Of a stretch of 64,000 nucleotides of DNA, positions 12,237 through 29,943 are shown piece by piece. Within the stretch, counting starts at the first letter, position 1. Each line of letters starts with the position of its first letter. The stretch is taken from assembly GCF_044324785.1 (NCBI RefSeq), contig NZ_CP172127.1; one strand, given 5' to 3'. The notes beneath the pieces are model-generated. The model was not told where the DNA came from. It searched no databases and worked only from the letters and a program-made list of their open reading frames with translations. The DNA is from Escherichia coli. GTDB taxonomy: Bacteria; Pseudomonadota; Gammaproteobacteria; Enterobacterales; Enterobacteriaceae. A program made the position numbers and the translations under genes.

Positions 12237-13565
12237 TTATGCCAACGCATCCATCCGACGCCACATACTGGCAGCGGCTTTTCTGGCTTGCGCATAAATG
12301 GAATCGCAATCGAAGTTAAACTGACGGTCTTCATAGACCATCACGCCATTGACCATCACGCTATGAACGCTGCCTGAGCCCATACCGAAAGCGATATGCC
12401 CGGCGATATTGTCTGCCAGCAGCGGTGTCGGCGAGTTGTAATCGCAAATGGTTAAATCGGCTTTGTAACCGGCTTCCAGAAGGCCAAATTTCGCGCCAAA
12501 GTTGCGGCTCATCAGTTCGTTGCCGTTAGCCAGTGCTTTGGCAAAACTGTCAGGCCACAGCGGACCACCCGCATCGCGATGTTTAAAGAAGGCAAATTTC
12601 ATCTCTTCAAACATGTCCGAACCAATGCCGTCCGTTCCCAACGCCAGATTGCGGATGTCGCTAAGGTGATGGTTGTAGCCGACATGGTTGTTCATGTTTG
12701 AACGGGCGTTATGCACCAGGAACGCATCGCGCTGATTGAGTAGGGCGATGTCATCTTTCGACAAGTACAGCCCATGAGCGACCAGCGTTTTGCTGTCGAT
12801 GAGATCGAATTGCGCCAGTCGTGCCAGCAGGTCTTTGCCGTACCAGTGGTGACTGTAGGAAACGTCATAAAGGTCTTCCGCAGCGTGAATATGCAAACCA
12901 CGACCTGTGGCTTTCACGGCTTCACGCAGCATCTCCAGACCGGCATCCGGCACGGTAAACGGCGCGTGAGCGCCGATATGTGCTTCCACCAGATACGGCT
13001 CGGTTGCTGCTTTCTTCGCCTCATCAATCTGACGGGCGAAGCGGATGTTTTCTTCTACACCTTCCTGCAACTCTTTGATGCCGTTGTTACGGTCAGTAGT
13101 TTCAAAACAGGTCATCGCGCGCAGGCCAACTTTTAAAAATGCGTTGCGCAATGTGGAGAGCGACCCGCCGATATACGCCGGAGAGGCATGGTGATCGATA
13201 ACCGATGTACATCCGCTCTTAATTGCTTCCAGGGTACAAATCAGTCCGCTGTAATAGAGCGACTCTTCATCAAGGGCGCGATCGAGTCGCCACCAGAGAT
13301 TTTTCAGCGTTGAGATGAAATCCGGGCAGGGGGCGATGTTTGCCATAATTCCGCGGGACAGCCCCGAGTAAAAATGGTTGTGCGAGCAGACAATTCCCGG
13401 CATCACAATCCGACCATGCATCTCTTTGTAGCTGGCATCGGGGTAGCGTTGCGTCAGGGCATCGCCGATAGCGACAATCACATCATTTTCGATGGCGATA
13501 TCAACGCCTTCCTGCACTTTCGCCGGGTGTAACTGCACTGCGGTGACATTCTTCAGAATCAACAT
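12237..13565 (-). CDS. ssnA: Amidohydrolase (chlorohydrolase/aminohydrolase family)
   Basis: 442 aa; HxH metal-binding motif near the N-terminus (CSHNHFYSG); synteny. Confidence 0.85.
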   Translation of the reverse strand: MLILKNVTAVQLHPAKVQEGVDIAIENDVIVAIGDALTQRYPDASYKEMHGRIVMPGIVCSHNHFYSGLSRGIMANIAPCPDFISTLKNLWWRLDRALDEESLYYSGLICTLEAIKSGCTSVIDHHASPAYIGGSLSTLRNAFLKVGLRAMTCFETTDRNNGIKELQEGVEENIRFARQIDEAKKAATEPYLVEAHIGAHAPFTVPDAGLEMLREAVKATGRGLHIHAAEDLYDVSYSHHWYGKDLLARLAQFDLIDSKTLVAHGLYLSKDDIALLNQRDAFLVHNARSNMNNHVGYNHHLSDIRNLALGTDGIGSDMFEEMKFAFFKHRDAGGPLWPDSFAKALANGNELMSRNFGAKFGLLEAGYKADLTICDYNSPTPLLADNIAGHIAFGMGSGSVHSVMVNGVMVYEDRQFNFDCDSIYAQARKAAASMWRRMDALA

Positions 13566-13567
13566 GA

Positions 13568-16500
13568 TTACACCTCCACGCGGCCCAGCAGATAATGATG
13601 ATGCTGGTGGACATGGCTAATGATGCGGCACATATCGTTCAGCTCCGGTGGTACGTTGTTGAACTGACCTTCGCTGTCGATGTTTAACACCCAGCTTTGG
13701 TTATTCAGACGTACTCGTACCCGGCAATCTTCCACAAGGAAGCCTGGGTTGCTGCTGTTATCAAAGTCTTGCGACAGGCTGAAGACGGTGATTTTGTCTT
13801 TGTACGGTTTACCGTTCCACGGACAGAACTGAGCGCAGTTGCCGCATTCGTTACAGTAAGCGTCGAGGTGCAGCGTCTGGAAACGGTTCTGGAAGCCAGG
13901 GACCGCAATGGAGACGTTGGCGCGGTTCGGGCAGACATCCACACACTTGCTGCAAACGTAGTTACATTCAAGGCAGCGAGCAGCTTCCTGCGCGACAAAC
14001 GCATCACGATCGTCACTGTTCACCAGCGTGATAGAGATATCGCCTTTACGTTGATAGATTTCCGCCGGATTGACGTTGTTCCAGTATTTATCGTTCTGGT
14101 GGGAACGGATATTTTCCCGACTAAGGATGGCATCGGTCGCCCGACGCGCGGTTCCGACAGCAGCGACAATGGAGGATGGTCCGCGCTGTACGTCGCCGAT
14201 CATAAAGACGTCAGTCAGACGAGTTTCGCCATTATGGTCGACGTCTGGCCAGCCGTTTTTGTCCAGCGGCACGCCCATCGCATTCAGGGCTTCAGTATCC
14301 TGCTGTTCACCAATGGCGGTGATCAGGCTGTCTACATGCAGTGTTACTGTTTCGTTGGTTTCAACCGGACGGCGACGACCTTTCTCATCAGGTTCGCCAA
14401 GCGACATAACGCGCAAGGTTAAGGTGCCATCAGCATCGAAACGTTCCGGATTATTCAGGAAACGGAACTCCACGCCGTCGTGCAACGCTTCTTCATACTC
14501 TTCGCGCCATGCTGGCATCTCTTGCAGTGAACGACGGTAAACGACCGTTGCTTTTTCTACGCCTGGAACGCGTAACGCCGCACGAGCGCAGTCCATTGCC
14601 GTGTTACCCGCCCCGACAACGACCACATGTTTGCCCAGCTTGAGCGCTGTGCCCTTGTTGTATTCACGCAGGAAGGGGAGTGATTTCCAGACATTTTGGT
14701 TGTCGCCCGCCAGTTTCACACCGCTATTTTTATCAGTGCCGGTGGCAATCAGAACATAGTGGAAGCCCTGATTTTTTAACTGTTCAACGGTCAAATCGGG
14801 TGAGCAGCCATACTCAAATTTCACGCCGTGAGCGGCAACAAAATCGATATCGTGCTGAATTAACTCTGCAGGAATACGGAACTGAGGAATGATATTTTTC
14901 ACCACGCCGCCCGCATTGGCTTCGCGTTCAAACAGCGTAACCGGATGGCCCGCTCTGGCAAGGAAGTAACCTGCTGCCAGACCCGCCGGACCTGCACCAA
15001 TCACGGCAACCGGATGGCGTGAACCAGAACCGGCTGGTTTGTGCCAGCGTTGCTTATATTCATCCCAACCTTTTTCCAGCGCGACTTTTTTCAGTTCGCG
15101 GATATTCAGCGCACTGTCGTAATCCAGGCGGGTACAGTTGTATTGGCACTGGTGATCGCAAATATGACCGGTAATGGCGGGCAGGGCGTTGCGTTGGTAG
15201 ATGAGTTCCAGTGCGTCGGCATAGCGGTGTTCGCCAAGCAGACGGATGTATTCCGGAATATCCTGTTTAATGGCGCAAGCAGTAACGCACGGTGCAACGT
15301 AGCAGTCGGTCAGCGGCAGGTCTTCTGCCACTTCAATACGCTCTTCTGGCTTCCAGTGTTTCTGAGTGTATTCCATGGTTAACGCGTCTGCTGCCAGTTT
15401 GTTCAGTCGTTCGACGTCAACATGGTCAAGCCCCCAGGCGTCGGAGCCTTCCAGCTCGCGCATGCAGGCACTTAAGCGCAGATAGCCGCCAGGTTTCAGC
15501 AGGTCGGTTGCCATCGTGATAGGGCGAATACCAGTATCAAAAATATCGCGGATAGTCAGCTGACTGGCACCACCGGAATAAGAAATGGGCAGTTTGCCGT
15601 CAAAGGCGCGAGAGAGAACTGCTGCAACATTGATGGAGAGCGGGAACAGCGCACGGCCTGACATATACATCTCTTCACCAGGCAGTGCGCCTTTATTGTT
15701 GATGGTGCCGAGAGTGTTAGTCAGTTTTACGCCAAAGCCGAGTGATTTTTCTTTTGCCAGTGCCATCAGACGTTCCAGCATTTCCAGTGCTTGCGTCAGC
15801 TTGAGGTCGTGATCAAATGACTCTTCTTTTAAGCCTATGTAACCGAAACCGCAGACATCGAGGATCTCACGAACACGCGCGTACCCCAGTAAGGTCGGGT
15901 TGAGTTTCACAAAGGTATTGAGCCCTTTTTCTTCCAGCATGTAGCGGCAAATGGCTTCGATTTCATGCGGAGGACAGCCGTGCATGGTGGAGAGGGTGAC
16001 GCCCTGCACCATGCTGGTGGGGATGCGAGCGGGTAAGGCTTGCAAGCTTTCGCGTTTTTCCTGCAATCCGTGGCGGGCTAAAAATGCGTCATCCTGGAGT
16101 AATTTATTCAGCGTATCGCGATATTGAGCGAATTTCGGATGGTCAGATGCGTCCATCATATTGTCGATGAACTGTTGCATCGGCGGTTGCTTAATACCTT
16201 CGAGGTTGTAACCGACGCTCATATTAAAGATGAACGATTTACCGGAATCAGAAGGCTGGAACATCGCTTCGAGAAGGTGCAGGGCAAACCAGGCTTTGAG
16301 GTATTCATCCCAGGCTTTAAGCAGGGTAAATTCGGTGGACCATTCGGTGTTAAAGCACTCGTCTTCGGCATCAATACAGGGCTTTTCCAGCTCCAGGCGG
16401 TCAAGAATTTGGACGGTTTTTAGTTCGATGAAGCGTCCGCCAGTCAGCCAGGAAGTGACAATATTTTGCGCGAGCTGCGTGTGCGGGCCAGCGGCAGGGC

Positions 16501-16666
16501 CGACGGGAGTGGCACAGGTTTCACCGAAGACGCTAACAGTTTTACCTTTTACGGGTGAGTAAAACTGTTGCTCGGGAATACCAAAGATTGAGCGTTGTTG
16601 TTGGTATTCATCAAATATGCGCGTCAAAAGTTCCTCAAACGGAATGGGACGCATAATATCCCCCAT
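13568..16666 (-). CDS. ygfK: Large Fe-S flavoprotein oxidoreductase (putative selenate reductase-type subunit)
   Basis: 1032 aa; GAGPAGL and GAGNTAMD dinucleotide-binding motifs, C-terminal 4Fe-4S Cys clusters; first gene of the minus-strand ygfK..ghxQ operon. Confidence 0.85.
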   Translation of the reverse strand: MGDIMRPIPFEELLTRIFDEYQQQRSIFGIPEQQFYSPVKGKTVSVFGETCATPVGPAAGPHTQLAQNIVTSWLTGGRFIELKTVQILDRLELEKPCIDAEDECFNTEWSTEFTLLKAWDEYLKAWFALHLLEAMFQPSDSGKSFIFNMSVGYNLEGIKQPPMQQFIDNMMDASDHPKFAQYRDTLNKLLQDDAFLARHGLQEKRESLQALPARIPTSMVQGVTLSTMHGCPPHEIEAICRYMLEEKGLNTFVKLNPTLLGYARVREILDVCGFGYIGLKEESFDHDLKLTQALEMLERLMALAKEKSLGFGVKLTNTLGTINNKGALPGEEMYMSGRALFPLSINVAAVLSRAFDGKLPISYSGGASQLTIRDIFDTGIRPITMATDLLKPGGYLRLSACMRELEGSDAWGLDHVDVERLNKLAADALTMEYTQKHWKPEERIEVAEDLPLTDCYVAPCVTACAIKQDIPEYIRLLGEHRYADALELIYQRNALPAITGHICDHQCQYNCTRLDYDSALNIRELKKVALEKGWDEYKQRWHKPAGSGSRHPVAVIGAGPAGLAAGYFLARAGHPVTLFEREANAGGVVKNIIPQFRIPAELIQHDIDFVAAHGVKFEYGCSPDLTVEQLKNQGFHYVLIATGTDKNSGVKLAGDNQNVWKSLPFLREYNKGTALKLGKHVVVVGAGNTAMDCARAALRVPGVEKATVVYRRSLQEMPAWREEYEEALHDGVEFRFLNNPERFDADGTLTLRVMSLGEPDEKGRRRPVETNETVTLHVDSLITAIGEQQDTEALNAMGVPLDKNGWPDVDHNGETRLTDVFMIGDVQRGPSSIVAAVGTARRATDAILSRENIRSHQNDKYWNNVNPAEIYQRKGDISITLVNSDDRDAFVAQEAARCLECNYVCSKCVDVCPNRANVSIAVPGFQNRFQTLHLDAYCNECGNCAQFCPWNGKPYKDKITVFSLSQDFDNSSNPGFLVEDCRVRVRLNNQSWVLNIDSEGQFNNVPPELNDMCRIISHVHQHHHYLLGRVEV

Positions 16667-16817
16667 AACCCTCTCCTTAGCTTATACAGATATCATTGAG
16701 TGACCGGTGTTGAGAAATCCGGTGGTTTAGGGGGATAGAGCAACAATCGCACCACTCTTGCCAGGTTTGGCGGGAAATATAAAAAAATGTGAGGCGGCTC
16801 GAAACTTAGGAGCTTTT

Positions 16818-16833
16818 TGTGAATGAACTCACA
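16818..16833. promoter_or_regulatory. Candidate CRP binding site upstream of ygfK
   Basis: Perfect match to the CRP consensus half-sites TGTGA-N6-TCACA (tgtgaatgaactcaca), about 150 bp upstream of the ygfK start. Confidence 0.35.
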
Positions 16834-16987
16834 GGTGCCAAATGAGAATTAAAATCACTCCTGAAAATTATTATTGCCAGCCCATTTATCACTTTTTCTC
16901 TTTTCTCAAAATCAGTGATTCCTTATCATTATGATAAAGAGAACTGGAAGGGTTAAATATTTGAACGCAATCGTTTAACTACGTTTT

Positions 16988-17566
16988 CTAAATTTCAGTA
17001 TACCTTTTTTTCGCTGTAATAAAGTCGTCCGGAGTATCAATATCTAAAATTATTTCTGCATTTTCTATTTCGACGGAATAATGTTCTCCCATAAGGAGTG
17101 CCTGACGCATATTGGTGATATTGGGACGCTGGATTGCCTGCATCAGGCATGGCTTTGACACTAAAATCGGATGGCCGGGAATGCCATTATGGAGTGGCAG
17201 TATTGCGCCATCATTTCGTAACGACCAGATTTTCCTAAAAATATCGATGGTGAGGGTAGGCATGTCACCGTGGGTGAGAAAACAATATTCTGTTTGTACC
17301 GCGGGTACTGCGGCCTTTACTGATGTTAGTAAACCCTGTGCATAATCTGGGTTATGGATAATAGTGATATTGCTCTGGTTCGCATAACGCTTGTGCAGTT
17401 CATTACCACGATAGCCGGTGACTAAAATAATTCGGCTACAAAACTGCAACGCATTTTTGATACTTGTATCAAGAATTGTTCCCTGTTGCCAGGGTAACAT
17501 CATTTTCCATTGCCCCATTCTTGATGATAATCCGGCAGCGGTAATTATACAGTCGATGGCTGACAT
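16988..17566 (-). CDS. mocA: Molybdenum cofactor cytidylyltransferase (MobA-like NTP transferase)
   Basis: 192 aa; MobA-like N-terminus (ITAAGLSSRMG); synteny with K-12 mocA (ygfJ). Confidence 0.8.
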   Translation of the reverse strand: MSAIDCIITAAGLSSRMGQWKMMLPWQQGTILDTSIKNALQFCSRIILVTGYRGNELHKRYANQSNITIIHNPDYAQGLLTSVKAAVPAVQTEYCFLTHGDMPTLTIDIFRKIWSLRNDGAILPLHNGIPGHPILVSKPCLMQAIQRPNITNMRQALLMGEHYSVEIENAEIILDIDTPDDFITAKKRYTEI

Positions 17567-17668
17567 AGTGGTTCCATTATTTATAGGGGCTAATAACGCC
17601 TGATAATTGCGTTACTTCCTGATGGATTAAGTTGGGGATAATTTATCCCAGAGAGGTCATAAAGACTC

Positions 17669-18439
17669 GTGAAAAGTATAGTTGACCCATCGGCATTATT
17701 CATTGATTTAGGCGCGCAGAAACGTCCCACTGTGATTTCTGTTGTTGGGGCTGGGGGGAAAACCAGCTTGCTTTTTTGGCTGGCAGAACTGATCCAGGCT
17801 AGCGGCAGGCGTGTGTTAATCACTACGACGACACATATGTTTATGCCAACGTCTCACTGGCCCGTGGTTTTCTGTCGTGATCCCGCCATGCTTCCTCATG
17901 CGTCTCTTACATCCCCCATTTCATTTTGTTTTCACAGCTGGAAAGCGAACCAGGGAAAAGTGCAGGGATTTATGCCAGAAGCGATTGATGCACTGGTGCA
18001 ACGACCAGAGTGTGACGTAATTCTCATTGAGGCAGATGGCTCGCGTGGAATGCCGTTAAAAGCGCCTGATGAGCACGAACCTTGCATACCCAAAAGCAGT
18101 TGCTGCGTGATTGCTGTGATGGGAGGACATATTTTGGGCGCGAAAGTGAGCACAGAAAATGTCCATCGCTGGTCGCAGTTTGCTGATATTACCGGGTTAA
18201 CACCTGATGCAACCTTGCAACTGAGCGATCTCGTTGCGCTGGTTCGCCACCCTCAGGGCGCATTTAAAAACGTACCGCAAGGTTGTCGGCGAGTCTGGTT
18301 CATTAACCGTTTTTCTCAATGTGAGAATGCGATTGCGCAAAGCGAGCTCCTTCAACCGCTGCAACAACACGACGTAGAGGCAATCTGGCTGGGCGATATA
18401 CAAGAACATCCTGCAATCGCGCGCAGATTTGTGAATTAG
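17669..18439 (+). CDS. yqeC: Putative selenium-dependent hydroxylase accessory protein (P-loop)
   Basis: 256 aa; Walker A-like VVGAGGKTS; synteny. Confidence 0.8.
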   Translation: MKSIVDPSALFIDLGAQKRPTVISVVGAGGKTSLLFWLAELIQASGRRVLITTTTHMFMPTSHWPVVFCRDPAMLPHASLTSPISFCFHSWKANQGKVQGFMPEAIDALVQRPECDVILIEADGSRGMPLKAPDEHEPCIPKSSCCVIAVMGGHILGAKVSTENVHRWSQFADITGLTPDATLQLSDLVALVRHPQGAFKNVPQGCRRVWFINRFSQCENAIAQSELLQPLQQHDVEAIWLGDIQEHPAIARRFVN

Positions 18440-18486
18440 CGGCCCGGGTATTCCGGGTTACTGAAAGGATATCCATTGAGGTTGGT

Positions 18487-20112
18487 ATGAATATTTTCAC
18501 AGAGGCTGCAAAACTCGAAGAGCAAAATTGTCCGTTTGCGATGGCGCAAATTGTTGATAGCCGAGGCTCGACTCCCCGCCATTCTGCACAAATGTTAGTG
18601 CGCGCCGATGGCTCTATCGTCGGTACAATTGGTGGCGGAATGGTTGAGCGGAAGGTGATTGAAGAGTCGCTTCAGGCATTGCAGGAGCGTAAGCCGCGAT
18701 TATTCCATGGACGTATGGCTCGTAACGGTGCGGATGCTGTCGGGTCAGATTGTGGAGGTGCAATGTCAGTATTTATCAGCGTCCATGGTATGCGTCCACG
18801 TCTGGTGTTGATTGGCGCGGGGCATGTCAACCGGGCGATAGCCCAGAGTGCGGCGCTATTAGGATTTGATATTGCCGTTGCTGATATTTATCGCGAAAGC
18901 CTCAATCCTGAACTATTCCCACCATCAACCACGCTTCTCCATGCTGAGTCGTTTGGTGCAGCAGTGGAAGCACTGGATATTCGCCCTGATAATTTTGTCC
19001 TGATTGCCACGAATAATCAGGATCGTGAAGCCCTCGACAAACTCATTGAACAGCCCATTGCATGGTTGGGGTTGCTGGCAAGTCGTCGCAAGGTTCAGCT
19101 TTTCCTGCGTCAATTGCGTGAGAAAGGCGTGGCTGAAGAACATATTGCCCGTTTACATGCGCCCGTTGGTTACAACATAGGTGCGGAAACGCCGCAGGAG
19201 ATCGCCATCAGCGTGCTGGCAGAAATATTACAGGTGAAAAATAACGCGCCGGGTGGGCTGATGATGAAACCTTCTCATCCTTCCGGACACCAGCTGGTGG
19301 TGATTCGCGGTGCGGGAGATATCGCCAGTGGTGTGGCGCTACGTCTGTATCATGCGGGTTTTAAAGTGATCATGCTGGAAGTGGAAAAACCGACAGTGAT
19401 TCGTTGTACCGTGGCGTTTGCCCAGGCCGTGTTCGATGGCGAAATGACGGTCGAAGGCGTCACTGCCCGCCTGGCAACCAGCTCTGCGGAAGCGATGAAA
19501 CTTACCGAACGCGGATTCATCCCTGTGATGGTAGATCCCGCCTGTTCATTGCTTGATGAACTGAAACCGCTTTGCGTGGTGGACGCTATTCTGGCGAAAC
19601 AGAATTTGGGTACGCGGGCAGATATGGCACCAGTAACAATCGCGCTTGGGCCGGGCTTTACTGCTGGGAAGGATTGCCATGCGGTAATTGAAACAAATCG
19701 CGGGCACTGGCTCGGTCAGGTGATTTACTCTGGTTGTGCGCAGGAGAATACCGGTGTTCCCGGCAATATTATGGGGCATACCACCCGACGGGTGATCCGT
19801 GCTCCTGCTGCAGGCATTATGCGATCCAACGTGAAATTAGGCGATCTGGTGAAAGAGGGCGATGTGATTGCCTGGATTGGTGAGCATGAAATTAAAGCAC
19901 CGTTGACGGGGATGGTGCGTGGCTTGTTGAACGACGGACTGGCGGTGGTCGGTGGTTTTAAAATTGGTGATATCGATCCACGTGGTGAAACGGCTGATTT
20001 CACCAGCGTTTCTGATAAAGCCCGGGCAATTGGCGGCGGCGTACTTGAGGCGTTAATGATGTTGATGCATCAGGGCGTGAAAGCGACAAAAGAAGTGCTG
20101 GAAGTGGCTTAA
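18487..20112 (+). CDS. yqeB: XdhC/CoxI-family molybdenum hydroxylase maturation protein
   Basis: 541 aa; Rossmann-like GAGHV and GAGDIASG motifs; synteny. Confidence 0.8.
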   Translation: MNIFTEAAKLEEQNCPFAMAQIVDSRGSTPRHSAQMLVRADGSIVGTIGGGMVERKVIEESLQALQERKPRLFHGRMARNGADAVGSDCGGAMSVFISVHGMRPRLVLIGAGHVNRAIAQSAALLGFDIAVADIYRESLNPELFPPSTTLLHAESFGAAVEALDIRPDNFVLIATNNQDREALDKLIEQPIAWLGLLASRRKVQLFLRQLREKGVAEEHIARLHAPVGYNIGAETPQEIAISVLAEILQVKNNAPGGLMMKPSHPSGHQLVVIRGAGDIASGVALRLYHAGFKVIMLEVEKPTVIRCTVAFAQAVFDGEMTVEGVTARLATSSAEAMKLTERGFIPVMVDPACSLLDELKPLCVVDAILAKQNLGTRADMAPVTIALGPGFTAGKDCHAVIETNRGHWLGQVIYSGCAQENTGVPGNIMGHTTRRVIRAPAAGIMRSNVKLGDLVKEGDVIAWIGEHEIKAPLTGMVRGLLNDGLAVVGGFKIGDIDPRGETADFTSVSDKARAIGGGVLEALMMLMHQGVKATKEVLEVA

Positions 20113-20120
20113 ATGAAAAT

Positions 20121-20150
20121 GGCCGGATGGTATTACCCACCCGGCCTTTA
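20121..20150. terminator. Hairpin between convergent yqeB and yqeA
   Basis: Imperfect inverted repeat ggccggatgg...ccacccggcc flanked by T-rich runs on both strands. Confidence 0.45.
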
Positions 20151-20152
20151 AA

Positions 20153-21085
20153 TTACTGACAAATCACCGTTCCGGTTTTGCCTTCAATCCCTTCTTTCGC
20201 TTTGCTCAATACGGTAATCAGTGCTTCACGACCTGCGCGAGAGCGAGCAAACGAGGCGGCAGCTTCCACTTTAGGCAGCATAGAACCTTTCGCAAAATGA
20301 CCTTCTTCGATAAAGCGTTCAGCATCACTTAATGACAGGCGATCGAGCCACTGTTCATTCTCTTTACCGAAGTTAATGGCCACTTTTTCTACCGCAGTCA
20401 GAATGATCAGCATATCGGCATCAATCATCTCTGCTAAACGGGCGCTGGCCCAGTCTTTATCAATAACCGCGCTGGCACCACGCAGATGGTTACCTTCACG
20501 AATAACAGGAATACCACCACCGCCAACGGTGATCACTACCTGGCCTGCATCTACCAGAGCTTTAACCGTTTCTTTTTCAATGATATCAACCGGTTTTGGC
20601 GAGGCAACAACACGGCGATAGCCGCGACCAGCATCTTCTTTCAGAGTGTAACCCTGTTTTGTCAGTTGCTCTGCTTCCTGCTCGGTAAAGAACGAACCGA
20701 TCGGCTTGGTCGGGTTGAGGAATGCCGGATCGTTAGCATCGACTTCGACCTGGGTAACCAGCGTTGCTACAGGTTTATTAATGCCACGAGAAAGCAGTTC
20801 TTCTCTTAAGGCGTTTTGTAGATCGTAACCAATATAGCCCTGGCTTAAGGCAACACAGACAGACATCGGCAGCATTGGCGAGTGCGCTTCAGTTTTTGCG
20901 GCAGCTTCAAAGGCCTGGTTAATCATGCCCACCTGTGGCCCGTTACCATGAGTGACGATGACCTCATGTCCCTGGGCAATTAAATCAACAATTGCCTGAG
21001 AAGTAATTTTTACCGCTTTCATTTGTCCGGCCAGGTCGTCGCCCAGCGCATTCCCGCCCAGGGCGAGAACAATTTTCTTACTCAT
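20153..21085 (-). CDS. yqeA: Carbamate kinase-like protein
   Basis: 310 aa; amino-acid kinase family N-terminus (KIVLALGGNAL); synteny. Confidence 0.85.
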   Translation of the reverse strand: MSKKIVLALGGNALGDDLAGQMKAVKITSQAIVDLIAQGHEVIVTHGNGPQVGMINQAFEAAAKTEAHSPMLPMSVCVALSQGYIGYDLQNALREELLSRGINKPVATLVTQVEVDANDPAFLNPTKPIGSFFTEQEAEQLTKQGYTLKEDAGRGYRRVVASPKPVDIIEKETVKALVDAGQVVITVGGGGIPVIREGNHLRGASAVIDKDWASARLAEMIDADMLIILTAVEKVAINFGKENEQWLDRLSLSDAERFIEEGHFAKGSMLPKVEAAASFARSRAGREALITVLSKAKEGIEGKTGTVICQ

Positions 21086-21132
21086 TTTTCCTCACTCATC
21101 ATTCTTGATTGTGTATAGATCCCTGGCAGTGG

Positions 21133-22518
21133 TTAGAGCACGGGAGGGACAAACGGTTTGCGTCGCAGGAATCGACCTCGCCCGGCTTTGCCTGTAAAGG
21201 TGCCGTCACAGAAAATCGTTTCACCACGGGATAAGGTTCTGACAATCGCGCCCTGACAGGTAAAACCCTCCCATGGCGAATAGTCAGCGTTGTCGTGGAG
21301 ATGGCGATGCTGAATTTGTTGGCTCTGACGTGGGTCGATAATCACCACGTCGCCATCGGAACCGGGCGCTAATAATCCTTTTTGCGGCCACAGGCCAAAC
21401 AGCCTGGCGGGCATCGCGCTGGTTAATTCAACAAAACGTTCCGGTGTTATACGTCCCGTCATTACGCCACTGGAAAACAGTAACTGCATGCGGTTTTCCA
21501 CACCGGGTAAGCCATTTGGGCAGCGACTGAAATCGCCTTTAGAAATTTGCAGGCGTTGAGCCATTGAGAACGTGCAGTGATCGGTCGCCACCACGTCAAT
21601 CGCACCATCGCTGATGCCACACCACAGTTTGTCCTGCTCGCGTACGTTACGCAGCGGTGGGCTAAGAATGAACTTCATGCCATCTTCTGTATCGTAACTG
21701 CGTTCGTCCAACAGGAGATATTGTGGGCAGGTTTCAACCCAGACTGGCTGGTGATTCGCACGGGCAAGACGCAGATAATCCAGACCTAAGCCGTTAGACA
21801 GGTGCACGATATAGAGCGGGGCGTTACCGGCAATTTGTGCCAGGTTAATCATGCGGGCGATGGCTTCCGCTTCGCATTCCAGAGGGCGACTCAAGGCGTG
21901 ATAGCGCGGCGCGGTTAACCCTGCGGCGATAAACTCCGCCCGCTTGCTGGCGATAGCTGCATCATTTTCCGGGTGCACGGTGGTCAGCGCGCCGGACTCA
22001 TGCAAGCGGCGTAACGCCTGCAAAACCTCGTCATCGTTGAGTTTGTATTGATAGGTTAAATAGAGTTTAAAACTGCTCAGTCCTTCTTCGACCATCATCG
22101 GAATTTCGTCGAGGATGGCGTGATTAATGTGCTGGATCACACCGTGAAAGCTGTAGTCGATGACCGCCTTATGGGCGGCATAGCCACGATAAACCTCCAG
22201 TTGATGGCGTAACCGACAGCCGTTTGGGCCAAATCCCATATGGTCAATAATGGTTGTTGTACCGCCACACGCAGCTGCGCGGGTACCGGTAAAAAAATCA
22301 TCACAACTGCGCGCGATGCCGACATCAATATTGAAATGCGTATGGACATCCACGCCGCCAGGGAAAACGTAACAGCCAGTGGCATCAATTTCTTCATACG
22401 GGAGCTGCGGCGAAATATTGTTGCCCAACTGGCGAACAATCCCGCTTTCAATCAGCAAATCCTGTTTGGCTTGTCCATCTGCGTTAACGACAGTGCCGTT
22501 TTTGATCAATACGCGCAT
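21133..22518 (-). CDS. hyuA: D-hydantoinase / cyclic amidohydrolase
   Basis: ORF 21133..22530 trimmed to MRVLIKNGTVV... (461 aa); HxH (DVHTHF) metal motif; synteny. Confidence 0.85.
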   Translation of the reverse strand: MRVLIKNGTVVNADGQAKQDLLIESGIVRQLGNNISPQLPYEEIDATGCYVFPGGVDVHTHFNIDVGIARSCDDFFTGTRAAACGGTTTIIDHMGFGPNGCRLRHQLEVYRGYAAHKAVIDYSFHGVIQHINHAILDEIPMMVEEGLSSFKLYLTYQYKLNDDEVLQALRRLHESGALTTVHPENDAAIASKRAEFIAAGLTAPRYHALSRPLECEAEAIARMINLAQIAGNAPLYIVHLSNGLGLDYLRLARANHQPVWVETCPQYLLLDERSYDTEDGMKFILSPPLRNVREQDKLWCGISDGAIDVVATDHCTFSMAQRLQISKGDFSRCPNGLPGVENRMQLLFSSGVMTGRITPERFVELTSAMPARLFGLWPQKGLLAPGSDGDVVIIDPRQSQQIQHRHLHDNADYSPWEGFTCQGAIVRTLSRGETIFCDGTFTGKAGRGRFLRRKPFVPPVL

Positions 22519-22526
22519 AGCAAACT

Positions 22527-22553
22527 CCAAAAACCCTCCGGCGAACCGGAGGG
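22527..22553 (-). terminator. Intercistronic hairpin plus T-run between ygeY and hyuA (possible attenuator)
   Basis: ccctccgg-cgaa-ccggaggg followed on the minus strand by TTTTTGGAG; the T-run overlaps the hyuA RBS. Confidence 0.4.
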
Positions 22554-22570
22554 GAATAAGTGAAGAGTAA

Positions 22571-23782
22571 TTATTCGGTTGCCAGCCAGCTTAACGGGAT
22601 TGCAGCGTACATCGCGGCACAGGTCACCAGGTGAGATTTCCAGGTTTTTTCGTTAGGTGCATGCGCTTCAGGTTCTTTACCCGGGCCAAAGCCGATCACC
22701 GGAATGCCGTGACGGCCCATGATAGATACGCCGTTAGTTGAGAAGGTCCACTTATCAACAACCGGCGCTTTGCCAAACAGCCCTTCGTAGGCATTCACCA
22801 GTGCTTTAACGGTGAAGTGATCTTCTTCCACTTTCCAGGTCGGGAAGTAGCATTCGGTTGGGTAAACCAGGCCAGTCCAGGACGGACGGTCGTAGTTGTA
22901 CATAGAAACAACCGCGTTAGCTTTCTGTACTGCAGGCAGGGCGCGGATTTCGTCCAGCGCGCCTTCCCAGGTTTCGCCCCAGGTCAGACGGCGGTCAATA
23001 GAGACGGCGCAGCTATCTGCTACTGCGCAACGGCTTGGGGATGTGAAGAAGATTTCAGAAACGGTGAGGGTGCCTTTGCCGAGGAATTCGTCATAACCCA
23101 GACGTTGGGAGAGTTCTTGTAATTCGCCAAGAATCGGACCCATTTTGAAAATGGCGTTGTCACCGCGTTCTGGTGCAGAACCGTGGCAGCTAACACCCTG
23201 AACATCAATACGAATTTCCATACGACCGCGTTGACCACGGTATACCTGGCAATCAGTCGGTTCAGTACTGACCACAAATTCCGGGCGAATGCCGGATTGT
23301 TCAATAATGTACTGCCAGCACAGACCGTCGCAGTCTTCTTCCTGCACCGTACCGGTAACCAGCAGGGTATATTCATCTTCCAGACCGAGGTCTTTAATGA
23401 TTTTACCGGCATAAACCATAGAGGCCATGCCGCCTTCCTGGTCGGAAGTACCGCGACCACCGATCAGTTCATCAGTTTCCATGCCTTCGTACGGATCGAA
23501 GTCCCAGTTTTTGATGTTGCCAATGCCGACGGTATCAATATGAGCGTCCATTGCCACCAGACGCGGGCCGTGGCCGATATAACCGAGAACGTTGCCCATC
23601 GGGTCGATTTCAACTTTATCGAAGCCGACTTTTTCCATCTCTTCTTTAATACGATGTACTACGCGTTTTTCATCGCAGCTTTCACTGGGAATAGCAACCA
23701 TATCGCGCAGAAAGCGAGTCATGTCTGCCTGGTAATCTTTTGCTTTTTCAAGAATCAGTTTGAATGGAATATTCTTAGCCAT
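22571..23782 (-). CDS. ygeY: M20-family peptidase (ArgE/DapE-like)
   Basis: 403 aa; M20 metal-binding pattern; synteny. Confidence 0.85.
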
Positions 23783-23839
23783 TATTTTTCTCCAGATTTT
23801 TTACTCCCCGTTTTGCGGGGAGCAGTTCCAATAGGGTGA

Positions 23840-25036
23840 TTAAGGTGCTACAGCGTGTTTGCCTTCCCAGACAACTTCGCGGTAGTGCTTCACGTCTGTG
23901 TCGCCTTCAGTGCTGATAACCAGCACTACGGCATCTTTGTTCAGCGCCAGTTTTTCCATCAGGCTTTGACGTTGCGGGTGATAATGAACCGCTGCGAGAA
24001 CGCCCAAACCGACAGCGCCAGATTCACCGGAGATGATGCGTGGATCGTTGCCGTACGGATTACCCAGTACGCGCATACCTAATGCGGCAACGCTGTCCTG
24101 GCAGGAGATGAATTGGGTGGCGCAGTTACGTAGGATTTCCCAGCCCAGCGGGTTAGGTTCGCCACAGGCCAGGCCTGCCATGATGGTGGCCATATCACCG
24201 CCAACGTTGACGATGTCGCCTTTGACGCCAGAGCGATAAATACAGTCAGCTTTGTCAGGTTCAACAATAATGCTGTGCAGATTTTGCGGGCTGTAGACGT
24301 CGACCAGATAACCCAGCACACCACCAGCCATTGCACCGACACCGGCTTGCAGCAGAACGTGCGTCGGGGTTACGCCCATTTCACGCATTTGCTCGACGGC
24401 TTCATCTGCCAGTGTTGCGTAGCCTTGCATGATCCAGGTTGGGATTTTGGTGTAACCTTCCCAGGCGGTATCTTGCACCACTTCCCAGCCGTGCTGCTGC
24501 GCGTGTTGCATGGTCAGGCGAACGGTATCGTCATAGTTCATATCCGTGACGATGCACTCGGCACCGAGGTTCAGAATGGCGTCAACGCGTTCCTGAGCAG
24601 AACCTTTCGGCATGTAAATCACCGCATTCTGTCCGAGTTGCTGTGCTGCCCACGCCACACCGCGCCCGTGGTTGCCGTCGGTGGTGGTCGCGAAAGTCAT
24701 TTTTTCGCCGATGGCATTTTTCAGGTGCTCAAATGACAGCGTTTCGATATCAAGATGATATTTTTCGCACAATAATTGAGCGATGGCGTATGCACCGCCG
24801 AGCATTTTGAAGGCGTTCAGACCGAATCGTTTTGATTCGTCTTTGACGAGAATTTTCTTCACACCAAAAAGGTTTGCGAGATCGTCCAGCGCACAAAGCG
24901 GTGTTGGGCGATAACCAGCAATTTTCTGGTGGAACTGGCGCGCCAGTTTGGCCTGGCTTTGCGAAAAGAGCGGTGATGTTTCGCCGTTGAAAAATTTGTT
25001 ATCGGCGATATCAATCTTCAATGAGAAAACGGACAT
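23840..25036 (-). CDS. ygeX: PLP-dependent 2,3-diaminopropionate ammonia-lyase
   Basis: 398 aa; PLP-lysine region (NAFKMLGG); synteny with K-12 ygeX (dpaL). Confidence 0.85.
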   Translation of the reverse strand: MSVFSLKIDIADNKFFNGETSPLFSQSQAKLARQFHQKIAGYRPTPLCALDDLANLFGVKKILVKDESKRFGLNAFKMLGGAYAIAQLLCEKYHLDIETLSFEHLKNAIGEKMTFATTTDGNHGRGVAWAAQQLGQNAVIYMPKGSAQERVDAILNLGAECIVTDMNYDDTVRLTMQHAQQHGWEVVQDTAWEGYTKIPTWIMQGYATLADEAVEQMREMGVTPTHVLLQAGVGAMAGGVLGYLVDVYSPQNLHSIIVEPDKADCIYRSGVKGDIVNVGGDMATIMAGLACGEPNPLGWEILRNCATQFISCQDSVAALGMRVLGNPYGNDPRIISGESGAVGLGVLAAVHYHPQRQSLMEKLALNKDAVVLVISTEGDTDVKHYREVVWEGKHAVAP

Positions 25037-25093
25037 ATCCTATCCTTTTGGCCTCTGGAAATAGAGGGCCGACCAGCTGATCGGCCCGAGGGG

Positions 25094-26284
25094 TTATTTC
25101 ACGCGTTCTTGCGCTTCTTTCAGCAGTTGCTCGAGCAGTGCACCTGGTTTGGCGTATTTACGGGACAGGATCATCGCGGCGATGATATAAGGCTTCCAGC
25201 TGGCTTCTTTGTAGGTCGCGATACGGTATTTTTCGAATACGCCTTCAGTCACTTCACCTTCTTTGCAGGATACGCCGCTGATATCAGCTGGCAGGCAGTG
25301 CATGTACAGGGCTTCGCCATCACGGGTCAGTTCCATCATCTCTTCGGTGCAATGCCAGTCTTTGTGCTGAGCGTTCTGCGCCAGACACTGTTTTTCCAGT
25401 GCTTTTAAGCCTTCGTGATCGTTAGCGCGCAGCAATTCAGTACGCTCTTCCATCACTTTGTAAGGTGCCCATGACTTCGGATAAACGATGTCTGCGTCTT
25501 TGAAGGCTTCTTCCATGCTGGTGACCTGACGGAAGCTACCGCCGGAGGCTTTAGCATTGTTTTTAGCGACTTCAACGACATCCGGGATCAGGTCGTAGCC
25601 TTCCGGATGGGCCAGGGTGACATCCATACCGAAGCGAGTCATCAGACCGATGATGCCTTGTGGTACAGAGAGCGGTTTGCCATAGCTTGGGGAGTAGGCC
25701 CAGGTCATGGCGATTTTTTTACCTTTCAGGTTTTCCAGTGAACCAAAGTGTTCACGTAACCATGCGAGGTCAGCCATTGACTGAGTCGGGTGGTCAATAT
25801 CGCATTGCAGGTTCACTAAAGCCGGACGCTGCGGCAGTACGCCCTGCTTGTAGCCGTCATCAAGTGCAGCGCCAACTTCACGCATATAAGCGTTGCCTGC
25901 GCCCAGATACATATCGTCACGAATACCGATGGCATCGGCGCAGAAGGAGATCATATTGGCGGTTTCACGCACGGTTTCGCCGTGAGCGATTTGTGATTTG
26001 CCTTCGTCGAGATCTTGCTGTGCAAGGCCGAGCAGGTTAAGCGCGGAAGCATAAGAGAAGCGGGTACGGGTGGAGTTGTCGCGGAATACGGAAATACCTA
26101 ATCCACTATTAAAGACTTTGGTTGAGATGTTTTCAGCACGCAGTGCTTTTAATGCTGCGGCAACGTCCAGTACTTGTTTCAGTTCATCTGGCGTCTGTTC
26201 CCACGTTAACAAAAAATCTTTCTCGTGAAGGTGAGAGGTCAGCGAATTGATATCCTTAATCAGCTCATTAACAGTTTTCATCAT
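25094..26284 (-). CDS. ygeW: Carbamoyltransferase (ATCase/OTCase family)
   Basis: 396 aa; carbamoyl-phosphate binding STRTR and HCLP motifs present. Confidence 0.85.
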   Translation of the reverse strand: MMKTVNELIKDINSLTSHLHEKDFLLTWEQTPDELKQVLDVAAALKALRAENISTKVFNSGLGISVFRDNSTRTRFSYASALNLLGLAQQDLDEGKSQIAHGETVRETANMISFCADAIGIRDDMYLGAGNAYMREVGAALDDGYKQGVLPQRPALVNLQCDIDHPTQSMADLAWLREHFGSLENLKGKKIAMTWAYSPSYGKPLSVPQGIIGLMTRFGMDVTLAHPEGYDLIPDVVEVAKNNAKASGGSFRQVTSMEEAFKDADIVYPKSWAPYKVMEERTELLRANDHEGLKALEKQCLAQNAQHKDWHCTEEMMELTRDGEALYMHCLPADISGVSCKEGEVTEGVFEKYRIATYKEASWKPYIIAAMILSRKYAKPGALLEQLLKEAQERVK

Positions 26285-26376
26285 AAAGTCCCGGTAGTGG
26301 AATGACAGGCAAAGAGGTTTATTTCACTGTGACTTGCCAAAAGTGATTGGTCTTTTCACAGCTATACCTGGGACTA

Positions 26377-26391
26377 ACAATAACTATGCCA
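26377..26391 (-). promoter_or_regulatory. Candidate sigma54 (-24/-12) promoter for ygeW
   Basis: Minus-strand TGGCAT-N5-TTGT (consensus TGGCAC-N5-TTGC; one mismatch in the -12 element) about 95 bp upstream of ygeW, next to the divergently encoded sigma54 activator ygeV. Confidence 0.3.
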
Positions 26392-29933: not shown

Positions 29934-29943
29934 GATGTTATCC

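Follow-up and report, generated by a model that had tools for sequence, protein, structure and literature searches.

Known pathways of anaerobic purine degradation

The reductive uricolytic pathway, in which urate is degraded by way of 2,8-dioxopurine, is already known, having been worked out experimentally in 2023-2025 in published papers and one 2025 preprint. The best described system is the b2866-b2888 locus of Escherichia coli K-12 MG1655 (Li et al., Life Metab 2025; Liu et al., bioRxiv 2025). With the K-12 proteins, the pathway was rebuilt stepwise in vitro, the HyuA, YgeW, YgeY and YgeX steps reaching pyruvate. Labelled urate is no longer turned into acetate when any one of ygeW, ygeX, ygeY and hyuA, or either of ygfK and ssnA, is deleted; a strain deleted for ygeW-arcC no longer grows anaerobically on either urate or adenine, and such growth needs both molybdenum and selenium.

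The uric acid clusters of Clostridium sporogenes and Clostridioides difficile perform the same chemistry with homologous XdhD-type hydroxylase, SsnA, HyuA, YgeY, YgeX, YqeB and YqeC, and sigma-54 control is predicted there too (the 'DioR' regulon). The clostridial hydroxylase, however, lacks the YgfM FAD subunit and, unlike that of E. coli, does not use NAD(P)H; in C. difficile, a PydA-like reductase (UacX) takes the place of YgfK, and a hydrolase (UacY) that of YgeW and YqeA, so that no ATP is formed at that step. Classical clostridial purine fermentation is likewise an anaerobic process that ferments purines with selenium-dependent molybdenum hydroxylases, but its intermediates and genes differ and it lacks a carbamoyl phosphate step; Liu et al. 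report the two as entirely distinct.

Two further pathways share parts of this logic. In the arginine deiminase pathway (catabolic ornithine carbamoyltransferase and carbamate kinase), phosphorolysis of a ureido group is similarly followed by the carbamate kinase reaction, so that two enzymes together achieve substrate-level phosphorylation, a parallel drawn by Liu et al., and YgeW has the carbamoyltransferase motifs; the E. coli locus, however, lacks arginine deiminase, and the ureido donor is 2,3-diureidopropionate instead of citrulline. The solved structures most closely related to YgeW, a knotted transcarbamylase, are those of N-acetylornithine carbamoyltransferases. Reductive pyrimidine degradation (dihydropyrimidine dehydrogenase, dihydropyrimidinase and beta-ureidopropionase) follows the same sequence of reduction, hydrolysis and ureido cleavage, as pointed out by Li et al.; the Fe-S/FAD module of dihydropyrimidine dehydrogenase is matched by the middle portion of YgfK, and HyuA is scored as a dihydropyrimidinase (NCBIfam). 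In contrast, the uricolytic route starts from a bicyclic purine, begins with a dehydroxylation, opens a ring twice and cleaves a ureido group twice, with energy conserved at one of these cleavages.

Extent and conservation of the locus

The window (the whole 64,000-nucleotide stretch of DNA that was analysed) contains the E. coli ygeV/xdh/ygf purine locus (Table 1). Ten intact open reading frames fill positions 12237-26284, hereafter the interval; every one of them scores above the curated NCBIfam cut-off for the family to which it belongs, and all ten proteins align with their K-12 counterparts over the full length and gap-free at 96.9-100% identity (tblastn). The functional unit is wider (positions ~1-32650) and adds uacT, ygfT-ygfS, ghxQ, guaD, xanQ, xdhD-ygfM, ygeV and xdhABC. 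All 22 genes of this locus are intact and collinear with K-12 MG1655, in identical order and orientation (96.9-100% protein identity), and four sigma-54 sites and five palindromes are common to both strains, whereas the convergent yqeA/yqeB spacer measures 40 bp here versus ~220 bp in K-12. The gene list of the earlier note on this DNA holds insofar as the ten interval genes are real and as named, but xdhD-ygfM, which it included, adjoin the left side of the interval and lie outside it, and its account left unmentioned ygfK, the predicted dearomatising reductase, which at 3.1 kb makes up 22% of the interval.

Of the 5426 complete E. coli genomes, 5151 carry the block at a coverage of 80% or more. 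No complete RefSeq E. coli genome is more than 99.3% identical to this DNA, which thus belongs to a somewhat divergent lineage. More than 30 other genera show synteny of the ygeW-ygeX-ygeY-hyuA-yqeA module, far above chance; together with ygeV in some cases, it is retained in Enterobacterales, Aeromonas, Photobacterium and betaproteobacteria, and a variant cluster is present in a Bacteroidales genome.

Among the flanking genes, ghxQ, guaD and xanQ are predicted to serve purine uptake and feed-in. XdhABC is a xanthine dehydrogenase, as judged from Pfam domains, identity to K-12 and mutant phenotypes, and feeds (hypo)xanthine into the pathway as urate. YgfT and YgfS are, by their role in the literature, candidate Fe-S/flavin oxidoreductase components of formate-dependent urate utilisation.

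Table 1. Genes and predicted regulatory features of the locus (window positions; identities are to K-12 proteins)
Feature	Position	Strand	Evidence
uacT, urate/H+ symporter	1..1359	-	residues 1-453 of 482, 3' end beyond window edge; 99.8% to UacT (tblastn)
Predicted sigma-54-like -24/-12 element TGGCACTCCACGAGCA, ~70 nt upstream of uacT	1428..1443	-	consensus scan
Palindrome TCTCATATTGATA, candidate YgeV enhancer common to divergent uacT and ygfT promoters	1554..1566	.	same site in K-12
Sigma-54 site TATGCCCGTTTATTGCA upstream of ygfT	1732..1748	+	same as K-12 ChIP-seq site (Bonocora et al., 2015)
ygfT (1795-3714), ygfS (3714-4202)	1795..4202	+	Pfam Fer4_20, Pyr_redox_2, 4Fe-4S dicluster; 99.7%, 98.8%
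ghxQ (4238-5605), guaD, guanine deaminase (5641-6960), xanQ (6975-8375)	4238..8375	-	tblastn, 99.3-100%
Likely terminator of the ygfK-ssnA-ygfM-xdhD transcript	8515..8530	-	terminator scan; GC-rich hairpin then T-rich tail, directly past xdhD stop
xdhD, Mo/Fe-S subunit (8540-11410), ygfM, FAD subunit (11407-12186)	8540..12186	-	Pfam Fer2_2, Ald_Xan_dh_C, MoCoBD_1/2, FAD_binding_5; 99.9%, 99.6%
ssnA, amidohydrolase	12237..13565	-	TIGR03314, 739 bits (cut-off 455.5); 98.2%
ygfK	13568..16666	-	TIGR03315 (Se_ygfK), 1781.8 bits (cut-off 835.3); Pfam Fer4_20, Pyr_redox_2; C-terminal Cys clusters
ygfK sigma-54 promoter GTGGTGCGATTGTTGCT	16739..16755	-	same as K-12 ChIP-seq site
Perfect CRP-consensus palindrome TGTGAATGAACTCACA, upstream of ygfK promoter	16818..16833	.	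CRP scan
Perfect palindrome TATCATTATGATA, candidate YgeV enhancer for ygfK	16924..16936	.	motif scan and conservation
mocA (16988-17566, -), yqeC (17669-18439, +), yqeB (18487-20112, +)	16988..20112		TIGR03310, TIGR03172, TIGR03309, each above cut-off
Predicted terminator of the ygeW-yqeA operon	20121..20146	-	terminator scan; strong hairpin, 10 pairs (8 G-C) and T-run, adjoining yqeA stop
yqeA (arcC), carbamate kinase	20153..21085	-	TIGR00746, 385.6 bits (cut-off 358.25); 100%
hyuA, D-hydantoinase	21133..22518	-	TIGR02033, 675 bits; 99.8%
ygeY, M20 amidase	22571..23782	-	TIGR03526, 721.6 bits; 100%
ygeX (dpaL), PLP-dependent diaminopropionate ammonia-lyase	23840..25036	-	TIGR03528, 651 bits; 100%
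ygeW, knotted catabolic carbamoyltransferase	25094..26284	-	NF005538, 825.2 bits (cut-off 453); 100%
ygeW sigma-54 promoter CTGGCATAGTTATTGTT	26376..26392	-	2 bases off K-12 ChIP site CTGGCACACTTATTGTT
CRP-like site tgtgatcaaccccaca (ygeW strand)	26435..26450	.	CRP scan
Palindrome TCTCATATTGATA, candidate YgeV enhancer, ygeV-ygeW spacer	26593..26605	.	motif scan
Second palindrome-like site TATCATCATGATC, closer to ygeV	26691..26703	.	in K-12 too
ygeV, sigma-54 enhancer-binding activator (PAS, AAA+, Fis-type HTH)	26761..28539	+	Pfam Sigma54_activat, AAA_lid_14, HTH_8, PAS_8; 99.7%
xdhC (28579-29058), xdhB (29055-29933), xdhA (29944-32202)	28579..32202	-	Pfam; 98.7-99.6%
xdhA sigma-54 promoter CTGGCGTAAATCTTGCC	32297..32313	-	K-12 ChIP-seq site matched exactly
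Palindrome-like AATCAATGTGATA, candidate YgeV enhancer for xdhA	32432..32444	.	motif scan

Predicted reactions

The interval is very probably the central part of a reductive uricolytic (2,8-dioxopurine) pathway locus, a judgement that covers mechanism and regulation jointly. All seven steps have been demonstrated with the K-12 proteins and, at 98-100% identity, are expected here as well.

In the first step, XdhD-YgfM, a putative urate 6-dehydroxylase (2,8-dioxopurine dehydrogenase), would act as a molybdenum hydroxylase in reverse and remove the C6 oxygen of urate, as the purified K-12 enzyme does when it forms 2,8-dioxopurine from urate with NADH. The catalytic motif check located Glu606 in XdhD, and the nearest solved structure is 4-hydroxybenzoyl-CoA reductase (PDB 1rm6, E 4e-80), with xanthine dehydrogenases behind (~1e-53). 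4-Hydroxybenzoyl-CoA reductase is a reductive dehydroxylase of the xanthine-oxidase family, and this best match is counted in favour of the reductive direction, although the two enzymes differ in substrate, subunits and electron donor and their likeness is one of sequence score alone. As to maturation, MocA would provide the molybdenum cofactor in its cytidine dinucleotide form, going by its assignment to TIGR03310, and YqeB and YqeC appear to be accessory proteins tied to selenium-dependent maturation of the hydroxylase; all three genes have been connected with selenium-dependent molybdenum hydroxylases (Haft and Self, 2008). By analogy with the C. sporogenes enzyme (selD mutant), and given the selenium requirement of Proteobacteria for growth on urate and the co-occurrence of the genes, selenium dependence is a candidate property of E. 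coli XdhD.

The second step is attributed to YgfK, the putative key ring reductase, an NAD(P)H-dependent Fe-S flavoprotein by its domains, which would reduce 2,8-dioxopurine and thereby abolish its aromaticity; SsnA would then hydrolyse the six-membered ring of the reduced compound to give ureidomethylhydantoin. The K-12 YgfK and SsnA yield ureidomethylhydantoin with NAD(P)H, and a ygfK deletion lacks the hydantoin intermediate, the product structures of both enzymes being rated provisional by Liu et al. In the fourth step, HyuA would open the hydantoin to 2,3-diureidopropionate.

Energy would be conserved in the fifth step, in which YgeW is predicted to transfer one carbamoyl group of 2,3-diureidopropionate to phosphate, and YqeA to convert the carbamoyl phosphate and ADP to ATP, CO2 and NH3. 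YgeW contains the motifs STRTR, HPTQ and HCLP and has a full-length match in PDB 3q98 (E 6e-270). The group taken by YgeW is the 3-ureido group according to Liu et al. and the 2-ureido group, giving albizziin, according to Li et al. YgeY would hydrolyse the ureido group that is left, forming 2,3-diaminopropionate, from which YgeX would produce pyruvate and two ammonia.

The anaerobic purine route with an energy step of carbamoyltransferase and carbamate kinase, as proposed in the earlier note, is thus shown for the K-12 orthologues (98-100% identical) by reconstitution and deletions. Both of the experiments that it suggested have answers in the literature, each of them favourable to the idea: the deletion mutants fail on purines as described above, and YgeW, together with YqeA, yields ATP from 2,3-diureidopropionate and ADP. 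Its statement that the substrates of several steps are undefined is outdated, given that every step now has an assigned substrate.

Promoters and a conserved palindrome

The four sigma-54 ChIP sites of K-12, at xdhA, ygeW, ygfK and ygfT (Bonocora et al., 2015), are all recovered in this window. Among 13 orthologous loci, the ygfK element reads TGGTGYGATTGTTGCT in 10 and TGGCGCAGTTGTTGCT in 2 more, and the ygeW element (TGGCAY-N4-TTATTG) is kept in Enterobacterales, Photobacterium and one betaproteobacterium. Consensus scans of the whole window for sigma-54 and CRP sites gave match numbers at chance level, and for the uacT element position alone is therefore suggestive. The CRP-consensus palindrome of ygfK is consistent with the reported glucose repression; at the ygeW site, GTGA-N6-TCRCA is kept in Enterobacterales, and a native Crp site in the ygeV-ygeW spacer was described by Li et al. 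The likely activator, YgeV, has GAFTGA at residue 347; other work describes it as regulating virulence genes in response to indole.

The new element here is a palindrome kept in different genera, TATCA-N3-TGATA, which is probably the enhancer bound by YgeV. Every one of the four sigma-54 promoters in the locus has it 120-215 bp upstream. Across the four regulatory spacers, 5 copies were observed versus 0.093 expected, a count reached in 0 of 2000 shuffles that preserved the dinucleotide content of each spacer, the motif having been derived in part from the same sequences as were scored. Upstream of ygfK, the palindrome is found in 12 of 13 orthologous regions, with conserved arms and a variable 3-base spacer, and it is 140-183 bp upstream of the sigma-54 element in the 11 loci (of 13) with both; upstream of xdhA, it occurs in 5 of 8 regions, ~130 bp upstream of the -24 element in the 4 with both. 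The copy at 26593..26605 is the central part of a conserved module that sits ~185-230 bp upstream of the -24 element. Over 25 orthologous spacers between ygeV and ygeW, the hexamer TGATAA is enriched (73 found, 10.8 expected), and in 24 of the 25 the motif accompanies ygeV beside ygeW. The operons bearing the palindrome are those listed for the YgeV transcriptional module, and the 16 kb around aegA contain none. A perfect copy is also present within the ygeX coding sequence (24748-24760).

Alternative interpretations

The likeness to clostridial purine fermentation noted earlier extends to the clusters of C. sporogenes and C. difficile but not to the classical xanthine-to-glycine route. [quoted passage not shown] The K-12 annotations ('fused putative xanthine/hypoxanthine oxidase', 'phenylhydantoinase', '2,3-diaminopropionate ammonia-lyase') and the 30% identity of XdhD to XdhA might instead suggest a second, oxidative xanthine/hypoxanthine oxidase for salvage beside unrelated hydrolases for hydantoin use and diaminopropionate detoxification. 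This is almost certainly not the case, since an xdhD deletion still consumes xanthine and accumulates urate whereas an xdhA deletion leaves xanthine unconsumed, the purified enzyme works on urate with NADH, the reconstitution from urate to pyruvate is reported, and the genes form one transcriptional module with common sigma-54 promoters and synteny across phyla. Database names ('putative selenate reductase subunit YgfK', 'selenium metabolism protein SsnA') and a genetic connection with selenate reduction that Haft and Self cite point to YgfK-YgfM-XdhD as a selenate reductase in a locus for selenium metabolism or detoxification; this, too, is very unlikely, considering that YgfK is specific for 2,8-dioxopurine and neither requires selenate nor is stimulated by it, that Haft and Self themselves argued for cofactor maturation as the selenium link, and that, along a single linear pathway, every neighbouring enzyme has its own defined organic substrate.

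The regulatory part is the more open to another reading. The spacers are 57-63% A+T, the arms of the palindrome resemble pieces of other AT-rich operators, and the copy within ygeX lies in coding sequence, so a regulator other than YgeV, or AT-rich promoter sequence of no specific function, is an unlikely but real possibility. Against it stand the excess over dinucleotide-preserving shuffles, the retention of the arms with a free spacer at a constrained distance from the sigma-54 element, and the association with ygeV and its module.

Implications for the uricolytic pathway

With YgeV as the probable activator, the xdhABC, ygeW-yqeA, ygfK-xdhD and ygfT-ygfS units (perhaps also uacT) would start from sigma-54 promoters, the four being activated from TATCA-N3-TGATA enhancers, and glucose repression would be exerted via the CRP-like sites. 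The predicted reductive uricolytic pathway would convert urate, 4[H] and water to pyruvate, 2 CO2 and 4 NH3, and may provide the cell with one ATP via carbamoyl phosphate and more via pyruvate.

Gene content and integrity of the purine locus

In megablast searches, the interval 12237-26284 and both of its flanks match the Escherichia coli chromosome, and the 14 kb interval is present at a coverage of at least 80% in 5151 of 5426 complete E. coli genomes, with a similar result for the flanks. According to the annotation of the best match and of K-12 MG1655, the genes of the locus come in the order uacT, ygfT-ygfS, ghxQ, guaD, xanQ, xdhD-ygfM, ssnA, ygfK, mocA, yqeC-yqeB, yqeA, hyuA, ygeY, ygeX, ygeW, ygeV and xdhCBA, in an orientation inverted relative to K-12. 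A tblastn search with the K-12 proteins recovers all 22 genes at full length, ungapped and with 96.9-100% identity, except for uacT, which is cut by the window edge; YgeW, YgeX, YgeY, YqeA and YqeB are 100% identical to their K-12 counterparts. The interval itself is filled by ten ORFs, each of which passes the curated NCBIfam threshold for its own family.

The ORFs, family cut-offs and K-12 identities bear out the genes named in the earlier note, although the interval was drawn imprecisely: xdhD-ygfM, which was placed within it, lies outside, and ygfK, which lies inside, was omitted (coordinates of these and other features are listed in the table below).

At the DNA level, the purine locus (1-32000) reaches a top identity of only 98.9-99.3% among the 5426 complete RefSeq E. 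coli genomes, despite the 97-100% identity of the locus proteins to K-12, and the source strain therefore seems to belong to a somewhat divergent, poorly sampled E. coli lineage. The convergent yqeA/yqeB spacer is 40 bp long in the window vs about 220 bp in K-12, which points to an extra element of approximately 180 bp in K-12.

Features of the window discussed in the text
Feature	Coordinates	Remark
PurR-operator-like sequence	1391-1406	3 mismatches to ACGCAAACGTTTGCGT
Sigma-54 site, ygfT	1732-1748	Identical to K-12 ChIP-seq site
Predicted terminator 3' of xdhD	8515-8530	Strong hairpin and T-run
xdhD	8540-11410	
xdhD-ygfM	8540-12186	
ygfK	13568-16666	
Sigma-54 site, ygfK	16739-16755	Identical to K-12 ChIP-seq site
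yqeA/yqeB convergent spacer	20113-20152	
Predicted terminator 3' of yqeA	20121-20146	Strong hairpin and T-run
Perfect palindrome within ygeX	24748-24760	Also in K-12
Sigma-54 site, ygeW	26376-26392	TGGCATAG in window, TGGCACAC in K-12; two bases differ
PurR-operator-like sequence	26483-26498	3 mismatches to ACGCAAACGTTTGCGT
ygeV	26761-28539	
Sigma-54 site, xdhA	32297-32313	Identical to K-12 ChIP-seq site
tRNA-Gly	33488-33558	
Island	33488-52000	About 18 kb
Integrase	33687-34940	Island
int-alpA RNA	34985-35052	Island; Rfam
DUF927 primase-like protein	39323-41449	Island
Four abutting co-oriented ORFs	43682-51343	Island; 843, 686, 918 and 104 aa
Low G+C region	52000-64000	36-42% G+C

The urate-to-pyruvate pathway

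The proposal that this gene set encodes an anaerobic purine pathway with an energy-yielding carbamoyl-phosphate step is supported in substance by published experiments. Both checks suggested in the earlier note have been carried out in the literature, with favorable outcomes. In MG1655, acetate is no longer formed from labelled urate when ygeW, ygeX, ygeY, hyuA, ygfK or ssnA is deleted (Liu et al., 2022 preprint), and a ygeW-arcC deletion in E. coli MS 200-1 abolishes anaerobic growth on urate or adenine (Kasahara et al.); on the enzymatic side, YgeW together with YqeA yielded ATP from 2,3-diureidopropionate. Moreover, the pathway was reconstituted step by step with E. coli proteins by two groups in 2025, and the substrates of several steps, described in the earlier note as undefined, are now defined. 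Urate-to-pyruvate flux accompanied by ATP formation has been demonstrated for K-12 and MS 200-1; judged by its gene content, the window contains one more intact copy of a pathway cluster already known in E. coli.

In the scheme established with the E. coli proteins, XdhD-YgfM reduces urate to 2,8-dioxopurine, which YgfK and SsnA convert to ureidomethylhydantoin; HyuA then produces 2,3-diureidopropionate, from which pyruvate is formed via YgeW, YgeY and YgeX, and YgeW together with YqeA generates ATP from 2,3-diureidopropionate and ADP. The regiochemistry of YgeW has been assigned in two ways: in the version of Liu et al., YgeW acts on the 3-ureido group and YgeY on the 2-ureido group, whereas Li et al. 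report the opposite assignment, via albizziin. The knotted N-acetylornithine carbamoyltransferases use a substrate that is N-alpha-acylated and act on a distal ureido group in it, and on this analogy we lean slightly toward action of YgeW on the 3-ureido group.

The sequences of the enzymes encoded in the window agree with this scheme, and the Pfam architectures of the locus proteins match the published roles. The XdhD-type Mo/Fe-S subunit and the FAD subunit YgfM contain the expected Pfam domains, are 99.9% and 99.6% identical to the assayed K-12 proteins, respectively, and XdhD retains the active-site Glu606, for which a role in orienting urate has been proposed. The closest sequence relative of XdhD among solved structures is the alpha subunit of 4-hydroxybenzoyl-CoA reductase (1rm6, E 4e-80), with xanthine dehydrogenases following at about 1e-53. 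4-Hydroxybenzoyl-CoA reductase is a reductive dehydroxylase, and the ranking fits such a role for XdhD. The genes ygfK (TIGR03315, 1781.8 bits vs the cut-off of 835.3) and ssnA (TIGR03314, 739.3 bits vs 455.5) are adjacent, with a gap of 2 bp, and the middle part of YgfK shows a match to the Fe-S/FAD module found in NfnA, in the small subunit of glutamate synthase and in dihydropyrimidine dehydrogenase. Structural modelling of YgfK and XdhD has been published. HyuA, YgeY and YgeX score above the cut-offs of TIGR02033, TIGR03526 and TIGR03528, respectively, and are 99.8-100% identical to K-12. YgeW (NF005538, 825 bits) and the carbamate kinase YqeA (TIGR00746, 385.6 bits) are encoded on one strand, between the ygeW promoter and the predicted terminator 3' of yqeA. 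YgeW retains the STRTR, HPTQ and HCLP motifs, which pertain to carbamoyl-phosphate and the acceptor, and aligns along its entire length with the E. coli crystal entry 3q98 (E 6e-270); after the Enterococcus faecalis orthologue, its next solved relatives are N-acetylornithine carbamoyltransferases.

Adjoining the hydroxylase genes are those for YqeB (TIGR03309), YqeC (TIGR03172) and MocA/YgfJ (TIGR03310), all above curated cut-offs, a set that forms part of the definition of the selenium-dependent molybdenum hydroxylase trait (Haft and Self). The trait also includes a genomic selD and labile selenium in the enzyme; the selD gene (b1764) is located elsewhere on the E. coli chromosome, outside the window (Haft and Self). 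Molybdenum and selenium are both required for growth (Kasahara et al.); selenium dependence has been established only for the C. sporogenes enzyme and for growth, and is putative for E. coli XdhD.

Relationship to other purine and carbamoyl-phosphate pathways

The earlier note likened the gene set to clostridial purine fermentation. In the classical form of that process, the xanthine ring is opened to give imidazole intermediates and formiminoglycine, and energy is obtained via glycine and one-carbon metabolism. The locus does not follow this route: the classical intermediates were sought and not found, the locus genes are absent from C. cylindrosporum (Liu et al.), and all 22 genes are accounted for by other functions. 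The arginine deiminase pathway, which comprises arginine deiminase, catabolic ornithine carbamoyltransferase and carbamate kinase, offers a parallel in that YgeW and YqeA work like its last two steps. However, the locus is not a member of this group: the annotation of the locus genes includes no arginine deiminase, and with the model for ornithine carbamoyltransferase YgeW reaches 133 bits vs the cut-off of 280.85.

A search of the protein database with YgeW gave 120 listed matches, all at least 85% identical, and hence no distant context, so a collection with one genome per species was scanned with the same query. Among 594 confirmed relatives, the best 80 were kept and compared with the window proteins using tblastn. 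In these 80 loci, ygeW-ygeX-ygeY-hyuA-yqeA, usually together with ygeV, is found in Enterobacterales, Aeromonas, Photobacterium and betaproteobacteria. The 40 most distant of these best 80 loci (L042-L083 of the scan) belong to Bacteroidota, Riflebacteria, Lentisphaerota, Bdellovibrionota, Spirochaetota and others, and their YgeW proteins, at 67-77% identity to the query, are unusually conserved; in the more distant phyla, YgeX near YgeW seemed absent in the tblastn comparison. A different pathway in Bacteroidota was considered and rejected on the gene content of a Bacteroidales locus (L072, 3915-20363), which encodes YgeY, YgeW, a hydantoinase, an SsnA-like protein, another PLP enzyme and two Mo hydroxylases, one of the selenium-dependent type and one a classical xanthine dehydrogenase, and so represents a variant form of this cluster. 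The PLP enzyme, which is threonine-synthase-like, occupies the place of YgeX in the Bacteroidales cluster, and neither a carbamate kinase nor YgfK is encoded within 10 kb.

Sigma-54 promoters and CRP-like sites

YgeV contains the Sigma54_activat (E 8e-71) and HTH_8 Pfam domains, with the GAFTGA loop at residue 347. In K-12, sigma-54 binds at xdhA, ygeW, ygfK and ygfT (Bonocora et al.), and all four sites are recognizable in the window. A consensus scan of the whole window gave 42 matches vs 42.1 expected and by itself accordingly has no evidential value; the sites were judged instead by identity to the published ChIP-seq sites and by cross-genus conservation. The -24/-12 sites of ygeW and ygfK are conserved across genera, and an alignment of 32 orthologous ygeV-ygeW spacers shows conservation of TGGCAY-N4-TTATTG along with a CRP-like GTGA-N6-TCRCA; a perfect CRP consensus is found upstream of the ygfK promoter. 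The CRP consensus scan gave 23 matches vs 28.6 expected, and only two CRP sites, those beside sigma-54 promoters, were retained as putative; they fit the reported glucose repression. Strong hairpins followed by T-runs 3' of yqeA and of xdhD are consistent with two long predicted transcripts, ygeW-yqeA and ygfK-xdhD.

Because strain differences in urate consumption have been attributed to regulation (Liu et al.), the two-base change in the -24/-12 element of ygeW may matter for this trait. Variants with TGGCAT in the ygeW element also occur in five other loci, namely TGGCATAG in Hafnia and Photobacterium obscurum, and TGGCATGC in two Morganella loci and in Serratia oryzae.

Other regulatory signals are less telling. 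The sigma-70 promoter scan (15 matches vs 18.3 expected) is not informative, and the PurR-box scan is statistically weak (2 matches vs 0.47 expected, with 2 reached in 7 of 100 shuffles). Both PurR-operator-like sequences lie in regulatory spacers, and the one upstream of ygeW is conserved as GCCAAACG(T/A)TT(T/A)CG in Citrobacter, Atlantibacter, Klebsiella indica and Trabulsiella. An Rfam scan detected no match inside the locus, its only hits being tRNA-Gly and int-alpA RNA further right. Under the new name IsrR, YgeV has also been described in enterohaemorrhagic E. coli and Citrobacter rodentium as an indole-induced regulator that controls virulence genes, a role that stands beside its apparent activator role at the urate locus.

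A candidate YgeV enhancer

The region upstream of the ygeW promoter shows a seven-fold enrichment of the hexamer TGATAA (73 observed vs 10.8 expected in 25 orthologous spacers from about 18 genera), which can be traced to a conserved module built around the palindrome TATCA-N3-TGATA. With one mismatch allowed, the palindrome occurs 11 times in the window vs 1.76 expected. Five of these copies, all of them also in K-12, fall within the four regulatory spacers upstream of xdhA, ygeW, ygfK and ygfT (the last shared with the divergent uacT), where 0.093 are expected; none of 2000 shuffles that kept the dinucleotide content of each spacer reached five. Of 13 orthologous regions upstream of ygfK, 12 contain the palindrome, with arms that are conserved and a spacer that varies; in the 11 of these where the sigma-54 element was also detected, the palindrome is located 140-183 bp upstream of this element. 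The palindrome-bearing operons coincide with the published YgeV transcriptional module, and the palindrome is probably the YgeV enhancer; no description of it as such was found in the literature searched. A candidate further member of the regulon, aegA, was rejected, as the 16 kb around this gene contain no sites. A perfect copy of the palindrome also lies inside the ygeX coding sequence.

Taken as a regulatory map predicted from sequence, these observations make it reasonably probable that the whole purine locus is a single YgeV/sigma-54 regulon, in which each sigma-54 promoter (those of xdhA, ygeW, ygfK and ygfT, perhaps also that of uacT) has a candidate palindromic enhancer 120-215 bp upstream, in combination with CRP sites; this enhancer is conserved in Enterobacterales, Photobacterium and betaproteobacteria. 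In that case, minor changes in such elements might explain why urate is consumed at very different rates by E. coli strains with near-identical enzymes.

The region to the right of the locus

The segment 32242-57000 is present at a coverage of at least 80% in only 15 of the 5426 complete E. coli genomes. It includes an island that adjoins tRNA-Gly and also carries SSB, ProQ/FinO and PerC-like genes. None of the four abutting ORFs of the island has a match in Pfam or PADLOC; the first (843 aa) strongly matches phrog_992 ('head protein') and also transglycosylase/endolysin families, and the third (918 aa) strongly matches phrog_684 ('virion structural protein', E about 1e-290), so that large virion-type proteins are encoded on a satellite-like island. 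The low G+C region beyond it contains glycoside hydrolase 15, a GhoT-like toxin and ETT2-type type III secretion genes (sctC, gatekeeper, sctV and sctN), which are intact in the window and largely decayed in K-12.

Implications

Gut bacteria with this pathway account for a sizeable part of urate removal in humans, and E. coli engineered to overexpress the locus lowered serum urate in uricase-deficient mice. The novel part of the present analysis is modest and consists only of the inferred regulatory architecture, that is, the sigma-54 promoters, the CRP-like sites and the candidate YgeV enhancer. If confirmed, this regulatory map would offer defined points at which the native cluster could be de-repressed in probiotic strains and might help account for strain-to-strain differences in urate consumption.
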